Source: Alteromonadaceae bacterium (GTDB lineage Bacteria > Pseudomonadota > Gammaproteobacteria > Enterobacterales > Alteromonadaceae). Taken from it: DNA of 32,000 nt. The translations under genes and the position numbers were made by a program. Positions 7,363-31,120 of the stretch are shown piece after piece. Every line of letters starts with the position of its first letter. Within the stretch, counting starts at the first letter, position 1. Location of the stretch: positions 82,794 through 114,793 of the forward strand of contig WKFJ01000056.1 of assembly GCA_014872785.1 (NCBI GenBank), in the 5' to 3' direction. Under the pieces are notes generated by a model. That model was not told the origin of the DNA and ran no database searches. It saw only the letters and a program-made list of their open reading frames with translations.

Positions 7363-7929
7363 CTAATGAGAAGAGTGCACGGGAATGTAGTCTTCATACT
7401 CTTTGCCTATTTTATCAAGGTATTGACGGCGGCGATGCGGGCTGTGCTTTTCCAGAAACACCTGCGTTAATTCGGCGACTCTTTTGGCGCATGTCGGGTG
7501 CAAATTCTGTATTTTTTTCTCGATAAGGGCGTTGATTTTCCCTAGCGTGCTGTGGTGTTGCTCAAGGGCAAACGCACGAGCATCGGCATCTCCGTGTTGT
7601 CGCAATACCGCCTCGACCGGCGCACAAATATCGTTAATGGTGTTGATGCTTTCAAGCGTGAAAGTATGTAGCGCTCGGTCTCGTTGCTCCAGAAGCTCTA
7701 ACATACCAGGTACAACCATATACTGAAGGATGTGGCCTGAGTAGGTCAGAAGTGGCAGCGGATCAGGTGGCGTGGTGGCTTTAGCAAAGGCATTGAAACT
7801 GGCCAGCAAGTAGCATCGAAGGTCGTCATACACGCCTAAGTTGTCAATGTCAGCTTTGCCTTTGATATCGGCCAGCCGGATAGAAAGCGATGCCAAATTC
7901 ACTCCATAATTCCACATTCCTTGATTCAA
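7363..7929 (-). CDS. hypothetical protein (184-188 aa)
   Basis: Long ORF with no competing frame. The start is ambiguous: TTG at 7929 or ATG at 7917. No motif recognised. Its upstream region contains Ter-like site T1. Confidence 0.55.
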   Translation of the reverse strand: MNQGMWNYGVNLASLSIRLADIKGKADIDNLGVYDDLRCYLLASFNAFAKATTPPDPLPLLTYSGHILQYMVVPGMLELLEQRDRALHTFTLESINTINDICAPVEAVLRQHGDADARAFALEQHHSTLGKINALIEKKIQNLHPTCAKRVAELTQVFLEKHSPHRRRQYLDKIGKEYEDYIPVHSSH

Positions 7930-7968
7930 TCATAATGCACAGTGTAACGACCGACAACTTAACAATCA

Positions 7969-7986
7969 TTTTAATACATCGTACCT
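7969..7986 (-). other. Ter-like site T1 (reads AGGTACGATGTATTAAAA on the minus strand)
   Basis: Matches the tus-proximal copy at 14/18 positions. Inverted relative to T2. Resembles the E. coli Ter core GTATGTTGTAACTAA. Confidence 0.55.
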
Positions 7987-8173
7987 ATATACCCTACTTG
8001 CAAAACCTAACCGCGCGTTGCGCGGTTGCGCCCGCCGCCCCTTATGGGGCGCCCATGAGGGTTAGCCAAGACAAACGAGAGAAAGACGAAGTGAGCGCTG
8101 CACCGAATGTCGAGACAACCGACAGGTCAATGCCCGGCGCACGGGGGTGGGAAAGGCACGAAACGGCATCTTT
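7987..8173. other. GC-rich hairpin-forming spacer between inverted Ter-like sites
   Basis: Strong compositional contrast with its AT-rich flanks. Perfect hairpin AACCGCGC-GTT-GCGCGGTT (8009-8027). Second hairpin CGCCCC-TTAT-GGGGCG (8036-8051). An outer pairing CTAACC (8007-8012) / GGTTAG (8060-8065) is also possible. Confidence 0.5.
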
Positions 8174-8191
8174 AGGTAGGATGTATTAAAA
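8174..8191 (+). other. Ter-like site T2 (AGGTAGGATGTATTAAAA)
   Basis: Matches T1 at 17/18 positions in inverted orientation, T3 at 17/18 and T4 at 15/18. Confidence 0.55.
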
Positions 8192-8249
8192 TCGTAGGTG
8201 GTGAGGGTTTCACTGCACAAATAGGATGGTCAGTGCTTGGGGGGGGTTC

Positions 8250-8267
8250 AGGTATGATGTATTAAAA
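8250..8267 (+). other. Ter-like site T3 (AGGTATGATGTATTAAAA)
   Basis: Shares an identical 15-mer, GGTATGATGTATTAA, with the tus-promoter copy T4. Matches 12 of 16 positions of the E. coli core GTATGTTGTAACTAAA, including the G equivalent to G6. Confidence 0.6.
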
Positions 8268-8555
8268 CAGAGCTGGTCTGATGTGTGGAGAACGAGTGTG
8301 CTGAGGCTGTGGCAGAATGTTTTTCAAGGCGACGGATCTGGATTTTTTTACCAATGGCTAACAGTGTGCTCGGTGCCTGCAAAAATATCTTGATTGGTAT
8401 AATAAACCGGCGTAAGTTACATACATGACTTACCGTCATACAGCTTCATCGTTGATAAGCTGTTCATGCACCGACTGCGCAGCAGTTTGTGTTACCCAAA
8501 TCACGCTTATGATTGCCTTGTAAAGGTGCGTAAGTGATTATTTGAGATTGATATT

Positions 8556-9860
8556 ATGAAAAAATTAAGCAGTTGCCTTGGGCAACATGTGGATGTGGCT
8601 GTACACAGCCCAAAAGATAAAACCTTCAAGAAAAGCGCTCACCAGACGTTATCACTCCCGTTTGACCTATCTGAGCCACTTGCTGCGTTGTTGCAGCACG
8701 TCACCCTTATCAATACGTCATTTCAGATCAAAGCCGACCCTGATTGCGCCGAAAAAGACGCCGCGCAGATCTTTTATAACGACATTAATTTGCTCAATAC
8801 CGTTATGACTGAATTGTCCAAATCTGAATGTGTCGCGTTTGTAGCGAAATACGTGGAGCAGGAAATAGACCGCTTAGGCGAGACTATCCGCAAAGAAGAG
8901 GGATACCTCATAAAAGCGTTTATGGCCAATAAAGTCTTTGCTGAGTCGATTGAACGTTACTTAGAGACGAAAGGTTACGCGGCAAGTTGCAATATTCAAC
9001 GAGGCACTTTGTTTGTCTCTGACAATCTGGTCATTAATTCTGGGATAACTCGCAATACAACGTTAACGACCGGGCTTTTTAATGCACTGCGCATGACGCC
9101 AGACAATGCAGACGTGCTTCGCTATGAGCAGATGTACAACAAAGCCCCGCAGCGTCATTTTGAGGCGGGCATTTGGTTGGATAAACAAGGTGACACCCCC
9201 TACACTGATGCGTTTAGCGCCATCTTGCTCGGCATGTTGCGTAACTTTGTTTCGTTCATGCACAAAAACCTTGGTAGTGATATTGTCGCCCCTGGGCTCG
9301 TAGAGGCCATTGAGGAACAATACGAGAAACAAGTGGCGCACATTGACACGCGGTACCACGTTGACACGCTAGATAAAACGACGGTCATGACATGGCCTGC
9401 GATTAAAAACAGCCAGGCATACCAAGAGATTGAACTGTTGGGGCTCGGTCAAGCAGCGAAGGATGCGTTTTACGAACGAGAATTAAGCTACGTGGTGCTC
9501 AATGAGTTGAAAAGTCTACTTGGTGCTATCGACACGTCTTTGTTTGATGCCTATCAGTTAGAAAAGGATGCACAGAGACACGGTTATGTCTCTGAGACGT
9601 ATTGCGACAGTGTGCCTCTTCCCAATGCTAAAGTAAGAGCTGCGCTTTTGACGCTTCAATCGCAGATAGCCTCTCCTGAGAGTCTATTTAATTACTTTTT
9701 TGATGCACAGCAGCTGAAAATCAAAATTGCCTGCGATGCTCGGTACGACAGTGAACACGATATCTTCACCCATCCACGCCAGTACCTCGATATCGTTGCT
9801 GGGGCGAAAATGCCCATCGCCAATGCCTCGCAAGTGCTTCGATTCACCTTTGAAGATTAG
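8556..9860 (+). CDS. hypothetical protein (434 aa), first gene of a three-gene operon
   Basis: Long uninterrupted ORF. The next gene starts 9 nt after its stop. No catalytic motif recognised. Confidence 0.7.
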   Translation: MKKLSSCLGQHVDVAVHSPKDKTFKKSAHQTLSLPFDLSEPLAALLQHVTLINTSFQIKADPDCAEKDAAQIFYNDINLLNTVMTELSKSECVAFVAKYVEQEIDRLGETIRKEEGYLIKAFMANKVFAESIERYLETKGYAASCNIQRGTLFVSDNLVINSGITRNTTLTTGLFNALRMTPDNADVLRYEQMYNKAPQRHFEAGIWLDKQGDTPYTDAFSAILLGMLRNFVSFMHKNLGSDIVAPGLVEAIEEQYEKQVAHIDTRYHVDTLDKTTVMTWPAIKNSQAYQEIELLGLGQAAKDAFYERELSYVVLNELKSLLGAIDTSLFDAYQLEKDAQRHGYVSETYCDSVPLPNAKVRAALLTLQSQIASPESLFNYFFDAQQLKIKIACDARYDSEHDIFTHPRQYLDIVAGAKMPIANASQVLRFTFED

Positions 9861-9868
9861 GAGAAAAC

Positions 9869-10156
9869 ATGAACGCACAGGCAACCGAATTGAGGTCAGA
9901 GTCTGCAATAAAGCGGAAATTGTCAGATTGGTTAGGGGAATTTCTCAGCCGCAGTCGACAAGCAGGAAAGCGCCATAACAGACACAGTGTCGCGCAAATG
10001 TTAGGGATCACCGATTCCTGTCTAAGTCAGTACACGAACCCAAGTAACAGCAAAAAAGCGCCTTGGGAATTTCAGGTCAAAATGTGTTTTTTGGTGGGGA
10101 AAAGTATTATTGAACTCCATCCAGAATTGAATGAGATCCGCATTCAGCATTTCTGA
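9869..10156 (+). CDS. XRE/Cro-like helix-turn-helix protein
   Basis: AGGAG RBS sits over the stop of the upstream gene. HTH-like segment HSVAQMLGITDSCLSQYTN. Confidence 0.6.
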   Translation: MNAQATELRSESAIKRKLSDWLGEFLSRSRQAGKRHNRHSVAQMLGITDSCLSQYTNPSNSKKAPWEFQVKMCFLVGKSIIELHPELNEIRIQHF

Positions 10157-10235
10157 TCTGATTGGGCTGGCCAGCAATCCGTTATTGCCGGTCGGCTCAC
10201 TACTTAATGAGCGATGTTATCAGGAGAAGCGTGCC

Positions 10236-11063
10236 ATGGTGTTATTAGAAAAGGGTCTGCCTAAGTATTTGTATAAGTATCGTTGTTTTGAGGATGACCA
10301 TATCGACGCCCTGACTCGTCACACTATCTATTTTTCACGGGGACGGGAGTTTAATGATCCGTTTGATGCGTGCAAAGATGTTCCAATGATATTAAGTGAC
10401 AGAGAATACGCGGTGAAGTTTTACCAGAAACGAAACCCTAAGAGTTATGCCGATTATCTGAAACGCTTTGGCAGTAAGCAGGCAACCGACGATGCCCTTT
10501 TTAGGACGCTGCAAAATAGCCAGCACGATCACAAAGACATCATCAATGGTGTACTTCAACGGTTAGAATCGTCTTACATTCTCAGTCTATCGACCTCCGC
10601 GACCAATCACCTTTTATGGTCGCATTATGGTGGCTGGCACAGTGGATTTTGTATTCGCTTCAAAACGCAGGCACTGATTGATTCGATGAATATAGAATGT
10701 GCGGGCCCTGTAACATACACAGATGAACCAATTAATCTGTTTAAATTCATGTGTGACGGCCAAGATGATTACGTTAACGAAGCAAGGAGACTGGTTAATC
10801 GCAAATCGATTGCCTGGGAATATGAGCGAGAATATCGATTGATCCACAATCGATTTGCAAACAGTCTCTCTGCAGACGGCTCTATCGCGTGCACCTATCC
10901 AAAAGATTGCGTAGACGCTATTTTCTTTGGCATTCGCACTTGCGAACAGAAGAAACGTGAGCTGTTTGAAATCTATGAAAATCAGGTCATCTACAAAGAA
11001 GTTAGACAAAAACAAGCCAGTTATGAGTTAACCGTTTCAACAGACCGATACCAACCAACCTAA
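10236..11063 (+). CDS. DUF2971-family protein
   Basis: LYKYRCFEDDHIDALTRHTIYFSRGREFNDPFD matches the DUF2971 N-terminal signature (lYkYr ... lyFs....fNDPfE). A later WEYEREYRLI block is also present. Start is set at ATG 10236, which has AGGAG 9 nt upstream; the ORF track begins earlier at 10131. Confidence 0.75.
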   Translation: MVLLEKGLPKYLYKYRCFEDDHIDALTRHTIYFSRGREFNDPFDACKDVPMILSDREYAVKFYQKRNPKSYADYLKRFGSKQATDDALFRTLQNSQHDHKDIINGVLQRLESSYILSLSTSATNHLLWSHYGGWHSGFCIRFKTQALIDSMNIECAGPVTYTDEPINLFKFMCDGQDDYVNEARRLVNRKSIAWEYEREYRLIHNRFANSLSADGSIACTYPKDCVDAIFFGIRTCEQKKRELFEIYENQVIYKEVRQKQASYELTVSTDRYQPT

Positions 11064-16508: not shown

Positions 16509-16865
16509 TTATTTCTTTTTACAAGGAAGACTTTCTGACAAAGCAGTTAAAATCTGTGCGGTAGCAGATTGGTGCCGTGTCTGTGGTTTTAGTCTTACAT
16601 TCTTTCTGACGATTTCTAGATATTGTTCGCCGGACATACCGTTGGCAGGACATATTGCGTTTACTACTATCGCCATTTCAGCAACACCGTAGACTAGCCC
16701 CATATACATGCCTACCCCACTATGCACAGTGTCGGGGTCATTAACGAGGCTTTTTTCATATTCGGTTAGATAAACGATAAATCGTTCTCCATCTACGAGC
16801 GCATGACTTTTAGATGCGAATACCAAAGCACACAAAGCAATAATTATTCTCGCTACCTTCAACAT
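16509..16865 (-). CDS. periplasmic Rap1a-like protein (possible T6SS amidase-effector immunity family)
   Basis: GAGGGA RBS upstream of ATG 16865. Signal peptide MLKVARIIIALCALVFASKSHA. The pattern G..YG.....V.NAICPANGMSGEQYLEIVRKNV...P..RH.SA..IL.AL...LPC resembles my recollection of Rap1a-type immunity proteins (C-P ... PC). The family call is tentative. Confidence 0.5.
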   Translation of the reverse strand: MLKVARIIIALCALVFASKSHALVDGERFIVYLTEYEKSLVNDPDTVHSGVGMYMGLVYGVAEMAIVVNAICPANGMSGEQYLEIVRKNVRLKPQTRHQSATAQILTALSESLPCKKK

Positions 16866-16908
16866 TCTTTTTGTTCCCTCTATTGGTCTAATCTTCAATA
16901 CGTTTAAT

Positions 16909-17337
16909 CTATAAAACAAAAACCGAATATACAGAGCTATAAAAACCAAATATAAATAGTAACTGCGCGGTTCTAACACATACTTTTGTACTTCGGTCGT
17001 TCATAGGATTCGTCTGGGCAAAAGAAAGAACATTAATCGTTCCATCGCATTCTAGTCCAGAGTTTCCTTTTGATAGTGAATTTCCATGAAACTCCAGATA
17101 TCGAGCAAAAGATGTCATGGCAAACAATCCTGCAAAAATGGAACATAAATAACTGAACATTCCTACCTTTAGCACCAATAAATCGAACTCGGTAAATTTG
17201 AATTTGCTGAGCAGCAACAAATCGAAAGCCAGCGCGGCCACCGCAATGGTGATAAAAGCTTTATACACGTCTAAGTGAACCGTTGTGAGCTTGCTAGCCA
17301 CTTCCTTACTTATGTCAGATAATTCATACGTTGTCAT
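16909..17337 (-). CDS. membrane protein (142 aa, about 4 TM)
   Basis: GAGGAG RBS upstream of ATG 17337 (MTTYELSD). Several hydrophobic segments. Confidence 0.55.
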   Translation of the reverse strand: MTTYELSDISKEVASKLTTVHLDVYKAFITIAVAALAFDLLLLSKFKFTEFDLLVLKVGMFSYLCSIFAGLFAMTSFARYLEFHGNSLSKGNSGLECDGTINVLSFAQTNPMNDRSTKVCVRTAQLLFIFGFYSSVYSVFVL

Positions 17338-26571: not shown

Positions 26572-27483
26572 TTAAAACGAACACAATTGTACGGATAAGC
26601 GCTGGCCTAAACCGTTTATCAACAAATCGTTATTTTCATGCGGAATGCGTTCTGAAAACGAATTGATGCGGTAATGAAATTTGAAACGCTTAGCGTCTCG
26701 GTATCGACCGGCCAAAGTATTGACGAAGGTATCACCGTAGTAGACACAAATACTCGGCAACGACCTTAGCTCATGAGCATCCGACAAGTAAGTGGATGAC
26801 GCCAAAAATCGCTGGTAGTCTTGCCACTTTCTTTCAAAGTCAGGGTTATGTTCGGCGACAACTGTGACGAACTGTTCATCTATCTCGGTTACACTGAACA
26901 CGTGGCCGCTTAGCAATGGAAGCAGGTAAGCCGAATACAAGACGTTTATCTGTTCGGTGATGATGGCGTTTTTTGCCGCCAATGTATCCGCAATAGTATC
27001 GCGCTTTACCCACGCCTCTTTGATGCCGAATATCGCCAAATGGGTGTCAATCACCGACTGCCTATCTTGCACGGTTGTCAGTTTTTCAATTTGCGCATAA
27101 GCGGCGTTTAATTGCTCACGCAGCGCAGTGTCACTCTCCAGCTTATCGATAAGATCTAGTGTCTTGGTCGTGTCTATGCTGACGTTAGCCGTCAACTCGT
27201 ATTTACCCTCAAACCATCGCTCATTCACCTTCTCGACGTCAACCGCCGCTAAACCTAGCGCATTGATTTCTTGTCGAAACTCGCCGTTTATTAGTGTTTC
27301 TTTTCCACCTACGAACAGCGGTAGCGTTAACAAGCCCTGCTTCTTTGCTTCAAGTCGAGCGTGTTGACGGACAATGTAGTCTTGTCTGTTATCAACGTTT
27401 ACCGTTACAACAACGTTCTTGCTCAATGCAGGAAAACACACCCCGAACACCAACAGGATAAGCGTAAAAACCCGTATCACCAT
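26572..27483 (-). CDS. secreted hypothetical protein (303 aa), first gene of the operon divergent from tus
   Basis: Signal peptide MVIRVFTLILLVFGVCFPALS. Long ORF. No motif recognised. Confidence 0.65.
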   Translation of the reverse strand: MVIRVFTLILLVFGVCFPALSKNVVVTVNVDNRQDYIVRQHARLEAKKQGLLTLPLFVGGKETLINGEFRQEINALGLAAVDVEKVNERWFEGKYELTANVSIDTTKTLDLIDKLESDTALREQLNAAYAQIEKLTTVQDRQSVIDTHLAIFGIKEAWVKRDTIADTLAAKNAIITEQINVLYSAYLLPLLSGHVFSVTEIDEQFVTVVAEHNPDFERKWQDYQRFLASSTYLSDAHELRSLPSICVYYGDTFVNTLAGRYRDAKRFKFHYRINSFSERIPHENNDLLINGLGQRLSVQLCSF

Positions 27484-27645: not shown

Positions 27646-27663
27646 GGGTATGATGTATTAATA
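27646..27663 (+). other. Ter-like site T4 in the tus promoter (GGGTATGATGTATTAATA)
   Basis: Lies 40 bp upstream of the tus ATG, in the same orientation relative to tus as E. coli TerB. It overlaps candidate -10 hexamers TATGAT (27649-27654) and TAATAT (27659-27664); candidate -35 elements are TTGACG (27624-27629) and TCGACA (27636-27641). Confidence 0.7.
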
Positions 27664-27703: not shown

Positions 27704-28648
27704 ATGGCCGCCATTGAAATAGATACCACCAAATACGAGCAAGAAATCAAAGCTATCCGACATGCCTTATTAAGTGTTGAAAGCCACATAAAGGCGTTTT
27801 TAGATGTGCTATCACAAGGTCGAATACTGGCTCCTTCGGTGGTGTATAAATTGCCACAGTTAACCGCTGAAGATATTGGTGTCGATGTGGTCGATATCCC
27901 TGTTCAACCGGTCATTGGTGAACGGTCGTTATCGCACTATGCGCACCATGTGTTGGATTTTCGTATCGACCATGACCATCCGGGCATGATGGCAAAGCGT
28001 CTACCTGGTGTGCTGATTGTTGAGCACAATGAGGAAATAGAACTCATGGAGCGCGTGGCGCATATCAATGCGTTAAAGTCTCAGTTCCATAACATTGTCA
28101 CCGGTGTGGCTAAAAACAAAGATGTTCGCCATGCGATCATGGTGGAAGCTGTGCCACTTTGTATCCGTAAATCAGTGGAGCGTAATTTGTTGTTGTGTCC
28201 GCAGAACTGCCAATCGATCAATTTTTCTTTCACAAGACGCTTGAGCATGCCCAAGCGAACGTTTACCAAAGAACAGCTTGAGCAGGATCTGATACAAAGT
28301 GTGAAATTTTCCAAAAATCCAGCCAAGCAACAAGAACAAGTGGATATTGATATCGCGTCGTTGAAAAACGCCAATCACGCTCACCATTTTCGCGTTGCAA
28401 GACCGCTGCGGGTAAACCCAGTGTACAATTTCTATTTAACGAAACCTGAAATCAATGAACAAGGAAAGTTGAAGAAGAGTCGCAGTAAAACCGCTGTTGC
28501 CCACACACCCGTCTTGTGTATAAACCAAGCGCCCAATATTGGCACATTAAAGAGCTATATTGGGCAAAGCACCGCGGACAATCCATTGGGGGATCCTGTC
28601 ATTGAAAGGCTTCATGTATATGCCGACAACAGGGCCGTCAGTCTTTAG
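27704..28648 (+). CDS. tus: DNA replication terminus site-binding protein Tus
   Basis: Length is similar to E. coli Tus (314 aa here, about 309 aa there). Collinear blocks (this window vs E. coli): KRLPGVL vs VRLPGVL; VAHINALKSQFHNIVTG vs IQHINKLKTTFEHIVT; FRVARPLRVNPV vs KIKRPVKVQPI; AHTPVLCIN vs CPTPLIALIN; IERLHVYADN vs IPRLHLYVAD. Confidence 0.9.
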   Translation: MAAIEIDTTKYEQEIKAIRHALLSVESHIKAFLDVLSQGRILAPSVVYKLPQLTAEDIGVDVVDIPVQPVIGERSLSHYAHHVLDFRIDHDHPGMMAKRLPGVLIVEHNEEIELMERVAHINALKSQFHNIVTGVAKNKDVRHAIMVEAVPLCIRKSVERNLLLCPQNCQSINFSFTRRLSMPKRTFTKEQLEQDLIQSVKFSKNPAKQQEQVDIDIASLKNANHAHHFRVARPLRVNPVYNFYLTKPEINEQGKLKKSRSKTAVAHTPVLCINQAPNIGTLKSYIGQSTADNPLGDPVIERLHVYADNRAVSL

Positions 28649-29924: not shown

Positions 29925-30704
29925 CTAACCAACCCCCGTTAATTTAAGCAAACTCTCAAGATTTCTAACAGGTGCCTGGGCATTGGCGATGGGTTCAAAA
30001 ACAAAATTATCGACGCGCGCTTCAGGTCTACCAAAATAATAACCTTGGCCAAAGTCGCCGCCTACACGCTGAGCAAGCGATAAATGCTCTGCCGTTTCTA
30101 TCCCTTCCACCACAACTTTCACGCCAATATCATGGAAGCAATTTACGAGTGCGCGCAGACTTTTTTCGTCATCCACACTTTCAGCCGCTTCACGCACCAG
30201 CGTCATGTCTGTTTTTATGATCCCAGGCTTCATCTTCATAACGTGACGAAAATTCGAAATTCCAGCACCGAAGTCGTCACAGACGATAGGATGGCCGTTG
30301 TTTCGAGCATGCTTCACATTGTGGTAAAAACCCGACACATCTTTCGGTAAGTCATTTTCCGTAACTTCAATCACAACAGATGACGGATGCAAACCCTGCT
30401 CGTAAAATGATTCAAGCGCTTCTGGAAATTGGGGGTGACAAATTTGTTCAGGAGAGAAGTTAACAAACACTGTTCTTAATTTACCCTCGATCACCATTTC
30501 CCGAATTTGCTTGGCAAGGCCGCGCACTAAAAATGACATATGCTCGACAAACAGTGCTGGCTCCTGACAGAAATCCTGCATTTTTAACTGGTTGAATTCA
30601 CGTAAGAGGAGTTCATGGGCAACCACTTTGTTATCCCGCATCCTGACAATAGGCTGGTGGGCAAAACTAACGCGGTGACTGTCCAGTTTAATGATATTTG
30701 TCAT
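29925..30704 (-). CDS. stand-alone EAL-domain protein (cyclic-di-GMP phosphodiesterase)
   Basis: EAL-domain signature blocks: HELLLR (ELL variant of EAL), FVNFS, VIEVTE, DDFGAGISN, IKTD, VVEGIET, QGYYFGRP. Confidence 0.85.
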   Translation of the reverse strand: MTNIIKLDSHRVSFAHQPIVRMRDNKVVAHELLLREFNQLKMQDFCQEPALFVEHMSFLVRGLAKQIREMVIEGKLRTVFVNFSPEQICHPQFPEALESFYEQGLHPSSVVIEVTENDLPKDVSGFYHNVKHARNNGHPIVCDDFGAGISNFRHVMKMKPGIIKTDMTLVREAAESVDDEKSLRALVNCFHDIGVKVVVEGIETAEHLSLAQRVGGDFGQGYYFGRPEARVDNFVFEPIANAQAPVRNLESLLKLTGVG

Positions 30705-31120
30705 GATGAAGCGTTTCCTAAATTTACCGCTGTAAATGGGTCGATGATCGCGTTTATTTTGTTGTTTTTATAGATGATAGCGGTATCAAAATGGGTGTTA
30801 TTGTTACTAGTCAGAGTGATCACTGAATATTTACGTTCGGCTTTTATAGATAGCGATTTAACTGTGCTTTTCTTGTGCCAGAACAAAAACCGTCTGACGT
30901 ACACGAGTTCTCCACCCAGCTCATATAATTGTTCATACCAAAAAGGGCTAATCAGAAGAGGAAGTGCGGGCAGCAGTAACACACCACTGATCACACCTTG
31001 GTACAATGAAGCATGGTAAAGGGATATAGCCAGATAAAAGATGATGGCGCACACACCCGCAAATACCGTCAAACGGTAAATGGGATTATTAAACATTACA
31101 TAGTAATAAATGTACGGCAT
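30701..31120 (-). CDS. membrane protein (139 aa, 2 TM) translationally coupled to the EAL gene
   Basis: ATGA overlap with the EAL start. TMs LTVFAGVCAIIFYLAISLY and VISGVLLLPALPLLISPF. Soluble C-terminal ~70 aa. Confidence 0.6.
   Translation of the reverse strand: MPYIYYYVMFNNPIYRLTVFAGVCAIIFYLAISLYHASLYQGVISGVLLLPALPLLISPFWYEQLYELGGELVYVRRFLFWHKKSTVKSLSIKAERKYSVITLTSNNNTHFDTAIIYKNNKINAIIDPFTAVNLGNASS

Follow-up and report, generated by a model that had tools for sequence, protein, structure and literature searches.

The terminus of plasmid R6K is said to consist of two inverted ter sites, a geometry attributed to work by Horiuchi and Hidaka in 1988. Both R6K and plasmid R1 carry an oppositely oriented Ter pair within a few hundred base pairs, with a fork getting past the first site and being blocked at the second; on R1, loss of Tus leads to multimers and rolling-circle intermediates (PMC10331603). 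Here we analyze a similar arrangement in 32,000 nucleotides of DNA from an Alteromonadaceae bacterium (contig WKFJ01000056.1 of assembly GCA_014872785.1; this whole stretch is hereafter called the window). It contains an inverted pair of Ter-like sites, T1 and T2, separated by 187 bp, two further copies, T3 and T4, and a gene (tus) for a Tus-family protein; in relatives of the locus, two inverted sites lie 144–264 bp apart. Judging from sequence comparisons, we consider it rather probable that the pair belongs to a compact fork trap of the R6K/R1 kind, which would also be the operator of tus and would sit on the backbone of a MOBH plasmid.

The likeness to R6K had been pointed out in an initial annotation of the window, and the comparison is apt, with some differences. 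R6K and R1 rely on the chromosomal Tus of their host, whereas the cassette considered here has its own, very divergent tus beside the pair; one of its arms would double as tus operator, and its spacer is longer (144–264 bp) and contains a recurrent tract. The sites of R6K and R1 also match the E. coli-type consensus of the host, in contrast to T1–T4: a scan of the window for the E. coli Ter core that tolerated 4 mismatches returned none of them.

Among chromosomal systems, the closest is E. coli TerB (MG1655; AATAAGTATGTTGTAACTAAAGT), which is located on the tus strand with its end 10 nt ahead of the tus ATG; the cassette likewise has a Ter-like site immediately upstream of tus, on the same strand and in the same core register. 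In the type I traps of Enterobacterales, the tus-vicinal Ter is among the two innermost sites, and a two-site trap has been proposed as ancestral (Toft et al., 2021; PMC8707476). None of the chromosomal traps in that study is narrower than 18 kb (Dickeya); the one of Edwardsiella measures 56 kb (PMC8707476). The cassette differs from type I traps in that the partner site is only 144–264 bp away and in its probable location on a conjugative plasmid. At roughly 150–260 bp, this two-site architecture is about a hundred times narrower than the 18-kb trap, and its minimal form fits the proposal of an ancestral two-site trap with a tus-vicinal Ter. In the window itself, T4 is no longer innermost, a layout that formally resembles type II.

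Plasmid-borne, “mobile” tus genes have been described, and chromosomal tus has been proposed to be domesticated from plasmids (Galli et al., 2019; PMC6549158). Genes of the tus/ter type are also annotated on IncA/C and pAQU-type plasmids (PMC9709138, PMC12406693). The window tus shares with these mobile genes the protein family and, probably, the kind of replicon; the searched passages of the three papers mention the gene alone, and we saw in them no cognate Ter sites, paired arrangement or spacer described. More generally, plasmid Ter pairs that are inverted and close together (R6K, R1), Ter at a tus promoter and tus genes carried by plasmids are all already known (PMC10331603, PMC6549158, PMC8707476). 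A limited literature search yielded no account of the Ter sites that belong to plasmid Tus proteins, of a conserved pair beside tus or of the recurrent tract.

Two further systems are instructive. On a Pseudoalteromonas chromid, ter could not be identified with the E. coli consensus, and tus adjoins ori2, from which replication is unidirectional (Xie et al., 2021; PMC7858055). This chromid shares with the cassette a Tus of plasmid origin, a host in Alteromonadales and a plasmid-type replicon (PMC7858055), whereas on the complete Alteromonas plasmid described below the pair is antipodal to an iteron array. The TerI/TerII sites (IRI) of Bacillus subtilis RTP are likewise close, opposed terminators beside the autoregulated gene for the terminator protein (PMC10331603), but protein family and sites are unrelated, and the analogy is one of convergence only.

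The interest of the locus lies mainly in its relatives and not in the GC-rich hairpins of the window. Together with the window, they supply putative Ter sites across an entire clade of divergent Tus proteins, and the idea is directly testable in the cultured strain Alteromonas mediterranea 615 and in the medically important IncC plasmids. If such a trap limits over-replication or multimers, this would be a plasmid-maintenance function that is so far unstudied.

Ter-like sites and inverted pairs upstream of tus

T1, T2 and T3 are copies of the motif AGGTAnGATGTATTAAAA, and T4 is a fourth copy (Table 1). T1 and T2 are identical at 17 of 18 positions and inverted; flanks included, each makes up a 20-nt arm, and the two arms are 95% complementary and separated by 185 nt. 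T2 and T3 are direct repeats whose starts are 76 bp apart, and T3 has the exact 15-mer GGTATGATGTATTAA in common with T4. The initial annotation had already read the 17/18-identical inverted copies of the tus-promoter motif and the 15-mer correctly from the letters. Allowing up to 3 mismatches, the motif pattern matches the window 5 times (0.11 expected), a count reached in none of 100 shuffles. The sequence of the pair was recovered identically in a Logan assembly contig (L002, run SRR10411456), which differs from the window at 5 positions over approximately 16.4 kb, none of them within 7900–8300.

A partial fifth site shares the exact 11-mer GATGTATTAAA with T1–T3 and is without the GGTA (G6) end. 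It falls in a gap of a minus-strand gene cluster and, if active, would act in the direction opposite to T4. A scan of a genome-contig collection for the motif gave 45 single hits, close to what a hand estimate predicts for chance, and the hit in Parashewanella is inside an integrase gene.

The pair recurs in relatives. We compared metagenomic contigs that encode relatives of the window Tus, and at up to 1 mismatch the core AGGTATGATGTA occurs exactly twice in each of four loci of 8–14 kb (L067, L069, L072, L074), both copies forming an inverted, intergenic pair directly upstream of tus (spacers in Table 1). Roughly 20–70 bp separate the right arm from the start of tus. In PLSDB, tblastn revealed the same arrangement in the circular, complete plasmid of the cultured strain A. 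mediterranea 615 (CP004847.1, L078; 200,847 bp, with a MOBH relaxase), hereafter pAM615. Its arms are perfect 22-nt repeats (TAACTACATCATACCTTTATAG / CTATAAAGGTATGATGTAGTTA) 169 nt apart, the right one ending 24 nt before tus, and no further perfect site is present in its 200,847 bp. In IncC plasmids, too, a tus homolog is preceded by an inverted pair, here diverged in sequence (TTAGACCATCATGCAA / TTGCATGATGGTCTAA) and with 168 nt between the arms; 1029 PLSDB records match this pair region, and in 971 of these the match covers 80% or more of it.

The outer parts of the arms are the same on both arms within a lineage and differ between lineages (GTAGTATA, GTAGTTA, ATACTTAC, GTACTTA, GTATTAAAA), a co-variation that fits one lineage-specific protein reading both arms. 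The only gene that always adjoins the pair is tus; to the left there may be a gene of about 170–190 codons, an OmpA gene or a gene co-directional with tus. We take T1 and T2 as the two arms of a conserved cassette: Ter(−), a spacer of 144–264 bp, Ter(+), then tus.

Several small observations concern the arms and their surroundings. At L072 2549-2582, a third partial copy (GAATATCATAC) stands head-to-head with the right arm across a 2-nt gap, which gives a local palindrome at the tus-proximal site. pAM615 has a second, weak inverted pair at 179,683-179,699 (−) and 179,864-179,880 (+), 17-mers with 4 mismatches each; this pair is intergenic and has the same geometry (spacing of about 165 bp), is without a purine tract and is probably due to chance, being borderline by a rough estimate. 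The 10-mer GTCAGTGCTT lies between T2 and T3 (8230-8239 of the window) and also between the right arm and tus in L067 (3197-3206), with a near copy inside the L067 interior; this 10-mer could be a further regulatory site, or its recurrence could be accidental.

The likeness of these sites to TerB is visible only in a register set by hand. In that ungapped register, T3 agrees with TerB at 12 of 17 positions, including G6, and an arm of pAM615 at 13 of 17, with the same orientation to tus. This degree of identity is similar to the 74–83% found among tus-vicinal Ter sites of Enterobacterales (Toft et al., PMC8707476). All of T1–T4 have G6, T7, A8, G10, T12, G13, T14, A15, A19 and A20. T9 is present in T3 and T4 and is replaced by C in T1 and by G in T2. 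Positions 7981 (T1) and 8179 (T2) are both G on the plus strand, where the clade consensus is T.

The G6 ends of T1 (7986) and T2 (8174) both point toward the interior, and T4, at the tus promoter, has the orientation of TerB. Because the G6 ends face each other by homology with TerB, T1 is predicted to stop leftward forks and T2–T4 rightward forks. The initial annotation had called the motifs Ter-like and assigned the same polarity, and both points hold up under the TerB comparison, the second as a prediction.

Table 1. Coordinates of Ter-like sites and other features in the window, and spacers of the inverted pairs in metagenomic relatives.
Feature	Position	Strand	Description
T1	7969-7986	−	AGGTACGATGTATTAAAA; left arm of pair; read directly from sequence
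T2	8174-8191	+	AGGTAGGATGTATTAAAA; right arm of pair, adjoins ancestral interior; read directly from sequence
T3	8250-8267	+	AGGTATGATGTATTAAAA; tandem extra copy with consensus core AGGTATGATGTA, orientation as T2
T4	27646-27663	+	GGGTATGATGTATTAATA; tus-vicinal Ter-like copy, putative equivalent of E. coli TerB
Partial fifth site	25060-25077	−	ATGAAAGATGTATTAAAT; intergenic
Interior (spacer)	7987-8173		187 bp, 59% GC; left part C-rich with two hairpins, right part purine-rich (plus strand)
GC hairpin 1	8009-8027		AACCGCGC GTT GCGCGGTT; 8-bp stem, GTT loop; lineage-specific
GC hairpin 2	8036-8051		CGCCCC TTAT GGGGCG; 6-bp stem; lineage-specific
Purine-rich tract	8058-8097	+	78% purine over 40 nt
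tus (GJ680_18650)	27704-28648	+	314-aa Tus-family protein, Pfam PF05472
177-aa gene	7363-7896	−	conserved left neighbor, transcribed away from T1; gene call as in L002
EAL-domain gene and 139-aa gene	29925-31120	−	conserved right neighbors of tus
Accessory segment	8192-27645		19,454 bp, between T2 and T4; missing at this position in relatives
DUF2971 protein	10131-11063		
Rap1a immunity protein	16509-16979		
AHH nuclease toxin	19259-22900		
L067 pair			spacer between 12-mer cores 264 nt
L069 pair			spacer between 12-mer cores 176 nt; same locus in four assemblies, L068-L071
L072 pair			spacer between 12-mer cores 207 nt
L074 pair			spacer between 12-mer cores 144 nt

The Tus-family protein and its replicon

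The window Tus matches PF05472 over nearly the full profile (positions 2–296 of 296; E=1.4e-27, 97 bits against a cut-off of 22) and aligns with E. coli Tus chains from PDB at E ~1e-6. T4 ends 40 nt ahead of its ATG. A right arm on the tus strand at the tus promoter is also found in L067, L069, L072, L074, pAM615 and IncC plasmids, and promoter-like −10 hexamers lie within the tus-proximal arm (TATGAT in pAM615, TAATAT in window T4). A word-based search of 5.8 billion proteins returned only the window Tus itself. An exhaustive HMMER search produced 80 relatives, the closest of which are 33–36% identical and all metagenomic; the Tus proteins of the pair-bearing metagenomic lineages are approximately 30–36% identical to that of the window. 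Among 1.8 billion representative proteins, the nearest relative is at 36% identity.

Residues of the E. coli cytosine-lock pocket were located in a protein alignment (A5) at 21–30% identity, a level at which individual residue assignments are uncertain. The position of I79 is hydrophobic throughout. H144 corresponds to V in the window Tus and to S, K or R in most relatives, with H in the pAQU-type plasmid; G149 corresponds to L in the window and is variable, mostly not G, in relatives. At the position of F140, the window Tus has H and all eleven other sequences of the alignment, E. coli Tus included, have F.

The gene order around the pair points to a plasmid. Metagenomic relatives and pAM615 share the order OmpA/Pal, a gene of about 170–190 codons (−), the pair, tus (+), an EAL-domain gene (−), a gene of about 140 codons (−) and a very large TraG_N protein, with other genes intervening after the first and before the last of these, and the window has several of these genes. 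Its 177-aa gene is homologous to a 168-aa gene left of the L067 pair (26% identity, E=2e-11), and an OmpA-domain gene, seen in L002, lies just past the left edge of the window. The EAL-domain gene and the gene of about 140 codons also follow tus in L067, L069, L072, L075 and pAM615. Relatives contain TraG_N and ParB_N genes, and in L075 the divergent neighbor of tus encodes a ParB_N protein. Contigs from four lineages have similar sizes (114,794, 114,004, 115,223 and 110,355 bp), which suggests complete replicons.

No housekeeping gene and no tRNA-like or rRNA-like feature turned up in the window, and the E. coli dif sequence has no match in it at up to 9 mismatches. The probable location of the locus is therefore a MOBH-type conjugative plasmid and not the terminus of a chromosome, with an integrative conjugative element as the less likely alternative. 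The initial annotation had assumed a chromosomal terminus, a view at odds with a gene order that matches a complete MOBH plasmid and metagenomic contigs of 110–115 kb. A prophage was considered and rejected: the 10 neighboring proteins have no PHROGs hits, and the Tus alignment found no match in viral contigs.

pAM615 allows the pair to be placed on a complete circle. The pair (137,333-137,545) is 100.6 kb, or 50.1% of the circle, from an iteron-like array flanked by parA and a 473-aa orphan gene, where cumulative GC skew is lowest. Next to the pair the skew has a local maximum (~141 kb), gene orientation switches there, and the position of the pair looks like the terminus of bidirectional replication. 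The array itself (36,549-37,131) consists of 16.7 tandem copies of a 36-bp unit with the palindrome AGTCCACAGTGTGGACT and could represent either origin iterons or a partition centromere.

Spacer, candidate fork trap and rival explanations

The interior enclosed by T1 and T2 has peaks of 60–62% GC, compared to 43% for the window. The initial annotation had called it very GC-rich in an AT-rich context; it is indeed richer than its surroundings, but the wording was overstated. Its two hairpins, noted at the same time, are real and strong (the best 30-nt hairpin has a dG of −12.0 kcal/mol, not equaled in any of 60 shuffles). Interiors of the seven lineages cannot be aligned, and what recurs is composition alone: a C-rich stretch, then a homopurine/homopyrimidine tract. 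In the best 40-nt stretch, five relatives have 85–90% purine and IncC 95% pyrimidine, the 99th percentile of the plasmid background being 82%; the window tract is a weak counterpart of these.

Three IncC variants (L083 3056-3269, L088, L089) have invariant arms and interior tracts of varying length. Across IncC/IncA interiors, the homopyrimidine tract measures 35–55 nt and varies by whole 10-bp units (TTTCTCTCTT); such steps would keep the helical phase between the arms. Open frames with stops inside the arms are present in the window, pAM615 and IncC and encode low-complexity K/E/R runs that look like a product of the purine tract. A small protein in the interior was rejected, as frames, starts and peptides are inconsistent across lineages. 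A retron-like non-coding RNA was likewise rejected: no reverse-transcriptase domain is found in neighboring genes, and the extra copies T3 and T4 do not fit such an element.

Two explanations place the meaning of the locus in this interior, and neither fares well. One takes T1, core and T2 as a miniature inverted-repeat transposable element (MITE) or its relic, with terminal inverted repeats that resemble the tus-promoter motif by accident. Inverted repeats of 18–20 nt around a short non-coding core of different composition do have the look of such an element, and the initial annotation had raised both a MITE-type unit with Ter sites as its ends and, more broadly, a foreign insert. Yet the unit is single-copy in the 32-kb window and has no match in the E. 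coli, plasmid and phage collections, no transposase is nearby, and the arms are homologous to E. coli Ter. Because the arms are conserved and the interior is not, at a syntenic position shared with six other lineages, a MITE is not supported, and we regard it as scarcely credible. The same slot between the arms is present in those six lineages, and for this reason the interior is the native spacer of the cassette and not a foreign insert, a MITE or a recognizable RNA gene. The other explanation is a small structured RNA closed by a T1/T2 stem, or a functional cruciform or H-DNA. It draws on the strong local hairpins, on a fold of 7960-8200 that is better than shuffles (z = −3.2), on a tract found in seven lineages, at 0.85–0.95 over 40 nt and above the 99th percentile in six of them, and on the 10-bp steps of IncC. 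Against it, z is the same on both strands because it is driven by the inverted arms, and the hairpins of relatives are no better than shuffled sequence, leaving only that of the window to beat the shuffles. The tract of IncC, being homopyrimidine, is on the other strand relative to tus than in the Alteromonas group. Rfam gave no match in the whole window at gathering thresholds and, for 7850-8600 at E<=10, only chance-level matches to snoRNA and miRNA families. A structured non-coding RNA, another suggestion of the initial annotation, finds no backing in an unconserved interior with lineage-specific hairpins, and we judge an RNA or DNA structure of this kind improbable.

In the compact fork trap that we favor, T1–T4 would be Ter sites for the Tus-family protein encoded beside T4, and the cassette would be a backbone part of a MOBH-type conjugative plasmid family. 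Tus would bind each arm with the G6 ends, non-permissive by homology with E. coli Ter, facing inward; with this orientation, a fork from either side would pass the first arm and therefore be stopped at the second. Plasmid replication would then end within a stretch of about 200 bp, or at its edge, and forks would not run on into DNA already replicated. The tus-side arm overlaps the predicted −10 of the tus promoter, and the same binding would repress tus, as at E. coli TerB. The spacer sequence would evolve freely, apart from the recurring C-rich segment and homopurine/homopyrimidine tract.

Several points weigh against this reading. The chief weakness is that the E. coli cytosine-lock pocket appears to be only partly kept in the aligned sequences; an E. 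coli-type lock should not be presumed for these proteins, and DNA homology is therefore the only basis for the predicted polarity. Both arms of the window pair differ from the clade consensus at one and the same core position, and the pair may be weakened; the deviation may reflect arms that are decaying or a changed specificity of Tus in this lineage. No pair was found upstream of tus in L075, in L073, in a Photobacterium pAQU-type plasmid or in an Aeromonas plasmid, and L073 was the one locus, a distant one, that a metagenome scan by Tus alignment returned. Cumulative GC skew on pAM615 reaches its global maximum not at the pair but near 175 kb. On IncC, the pair is 16.3 kb, or 10% of the circle, from repA, and a position opposite the origin is therefore not general.

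The principal rival takes the sites as operators only, with a Tus-like protein repressing two divergent promoters, those of tus and of the left gene, and having no role in replication. It would account for arms at the outer edges of a divergent intergenic region, for the −10-like hexamers in the tus-proximal arm together with a promoter-like site just past T1 on the minus strand, and for the poorly conserved pocket and the placement of the IncC pair away from the point opposite repA. However, the left arm is kept in L072, L074 and IncC despite a different or co-directional left neighbor, T2 and T3 are 200–380 bp from the next gene and off its −10 (~8397-8405), and the pAM615 pair is antipodal to the iteron array. 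Regulation and arrest are moreover compatible, a Tus-fold protein on Ter being the fork barrier of E. coli (PMC8707476), and we consider regulation without arrest unlikely. Slightly less probable, in our view, is a barrier of the R1 type near the origin, which would enforce unidirectional replication and stop a single fork after one round. R1 does exactly this with two ter sites beside oriR (PMC10331603), the Pseudoalteromonas chromid has tus beside ori2 and replicates unidirectionally (PMC7858055; PMC6549158), and the distance to repA on IncC would suit it. On pAM615, by contrast, half the circle separates the pair from the skew minimum with its iteron array and parA, and skew goes up one side and down the other, as in bidirectional replication.

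A broader proposal goes further than the compact trap and is correspondingly more tentative; we regard it as possible without expecting it to hold in full. The cassette may be a self-contained, mobile fork-trap module of MOBH plasmids, distributed from marine Alteromonadaceae to more than 1000 IncA/C records, and may be the plasmid-borne ancestor that gave rise, by domestication, to the Tus/Ter traps of chromosomes. The tract would then be functional, for example as a zone of fork fusion, decatenation or spacing, and the window would be an intermediate in which accessory DNA, inserted beside a Ter site, has started to move the sites apart toward a multi-site trap.

The accessory segment between T2 and T4

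The segment between T2 and T4 is flanked by direct Ter-like copies, T2/T3 on the left and T4 on the right. The right arm of relatives directly adjoins tus; in the window, T2 still borders the ancestral interior to its left, and it is T4 that has tus to its right. The window cassette would have been pulled apart by these 19.45 kb of accessory DNA, and the present layout is one predicted leftward-blocking site (T1) and three predicted rightward-blocking sites (T2, T3, T4), the tus-vicinal site not being innermost. Ter sites are known recombination hotspots in E. coli, and we speculate that the segment entered by recombination at Ter sites.

Its cargo comprises a 434-aa gene, the DUF2971, Rap1a and AHH genes of Table 1 and many orphan genes; Pfam revealed no integrase or transposase in the segment. 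A stretch at approximately 13–18 kb is AT-rich (37–39% GC). The only other homologs of the 434-aa gene are in integrase-linked islands elsewhere. The sole sizeable one (39% identity; contigs L004-L010 encoding P0002) was seen in several metagenomes, on a small island that has DUF6731 and a tyrosine integrase, borders an RND efflux operon and is without Ter-like motifs. By eye, an extended −10-like promoter, TTGATT..TGGTATAAT, is at 8391-8409, about 150 nt upstream of the 434-aa gene; T2 and T3 are well away from it and therefore not at the core promoter of that gene. At the other end, immediately left of T4, a 303-aa gene (26572-27483, −) is a homolog of a gene beside TraG in pAM615 (31%, E=2e-18), with a further homolog in L072, which suggests rearrangement around tus not only of cargo but also of backbone DNA.

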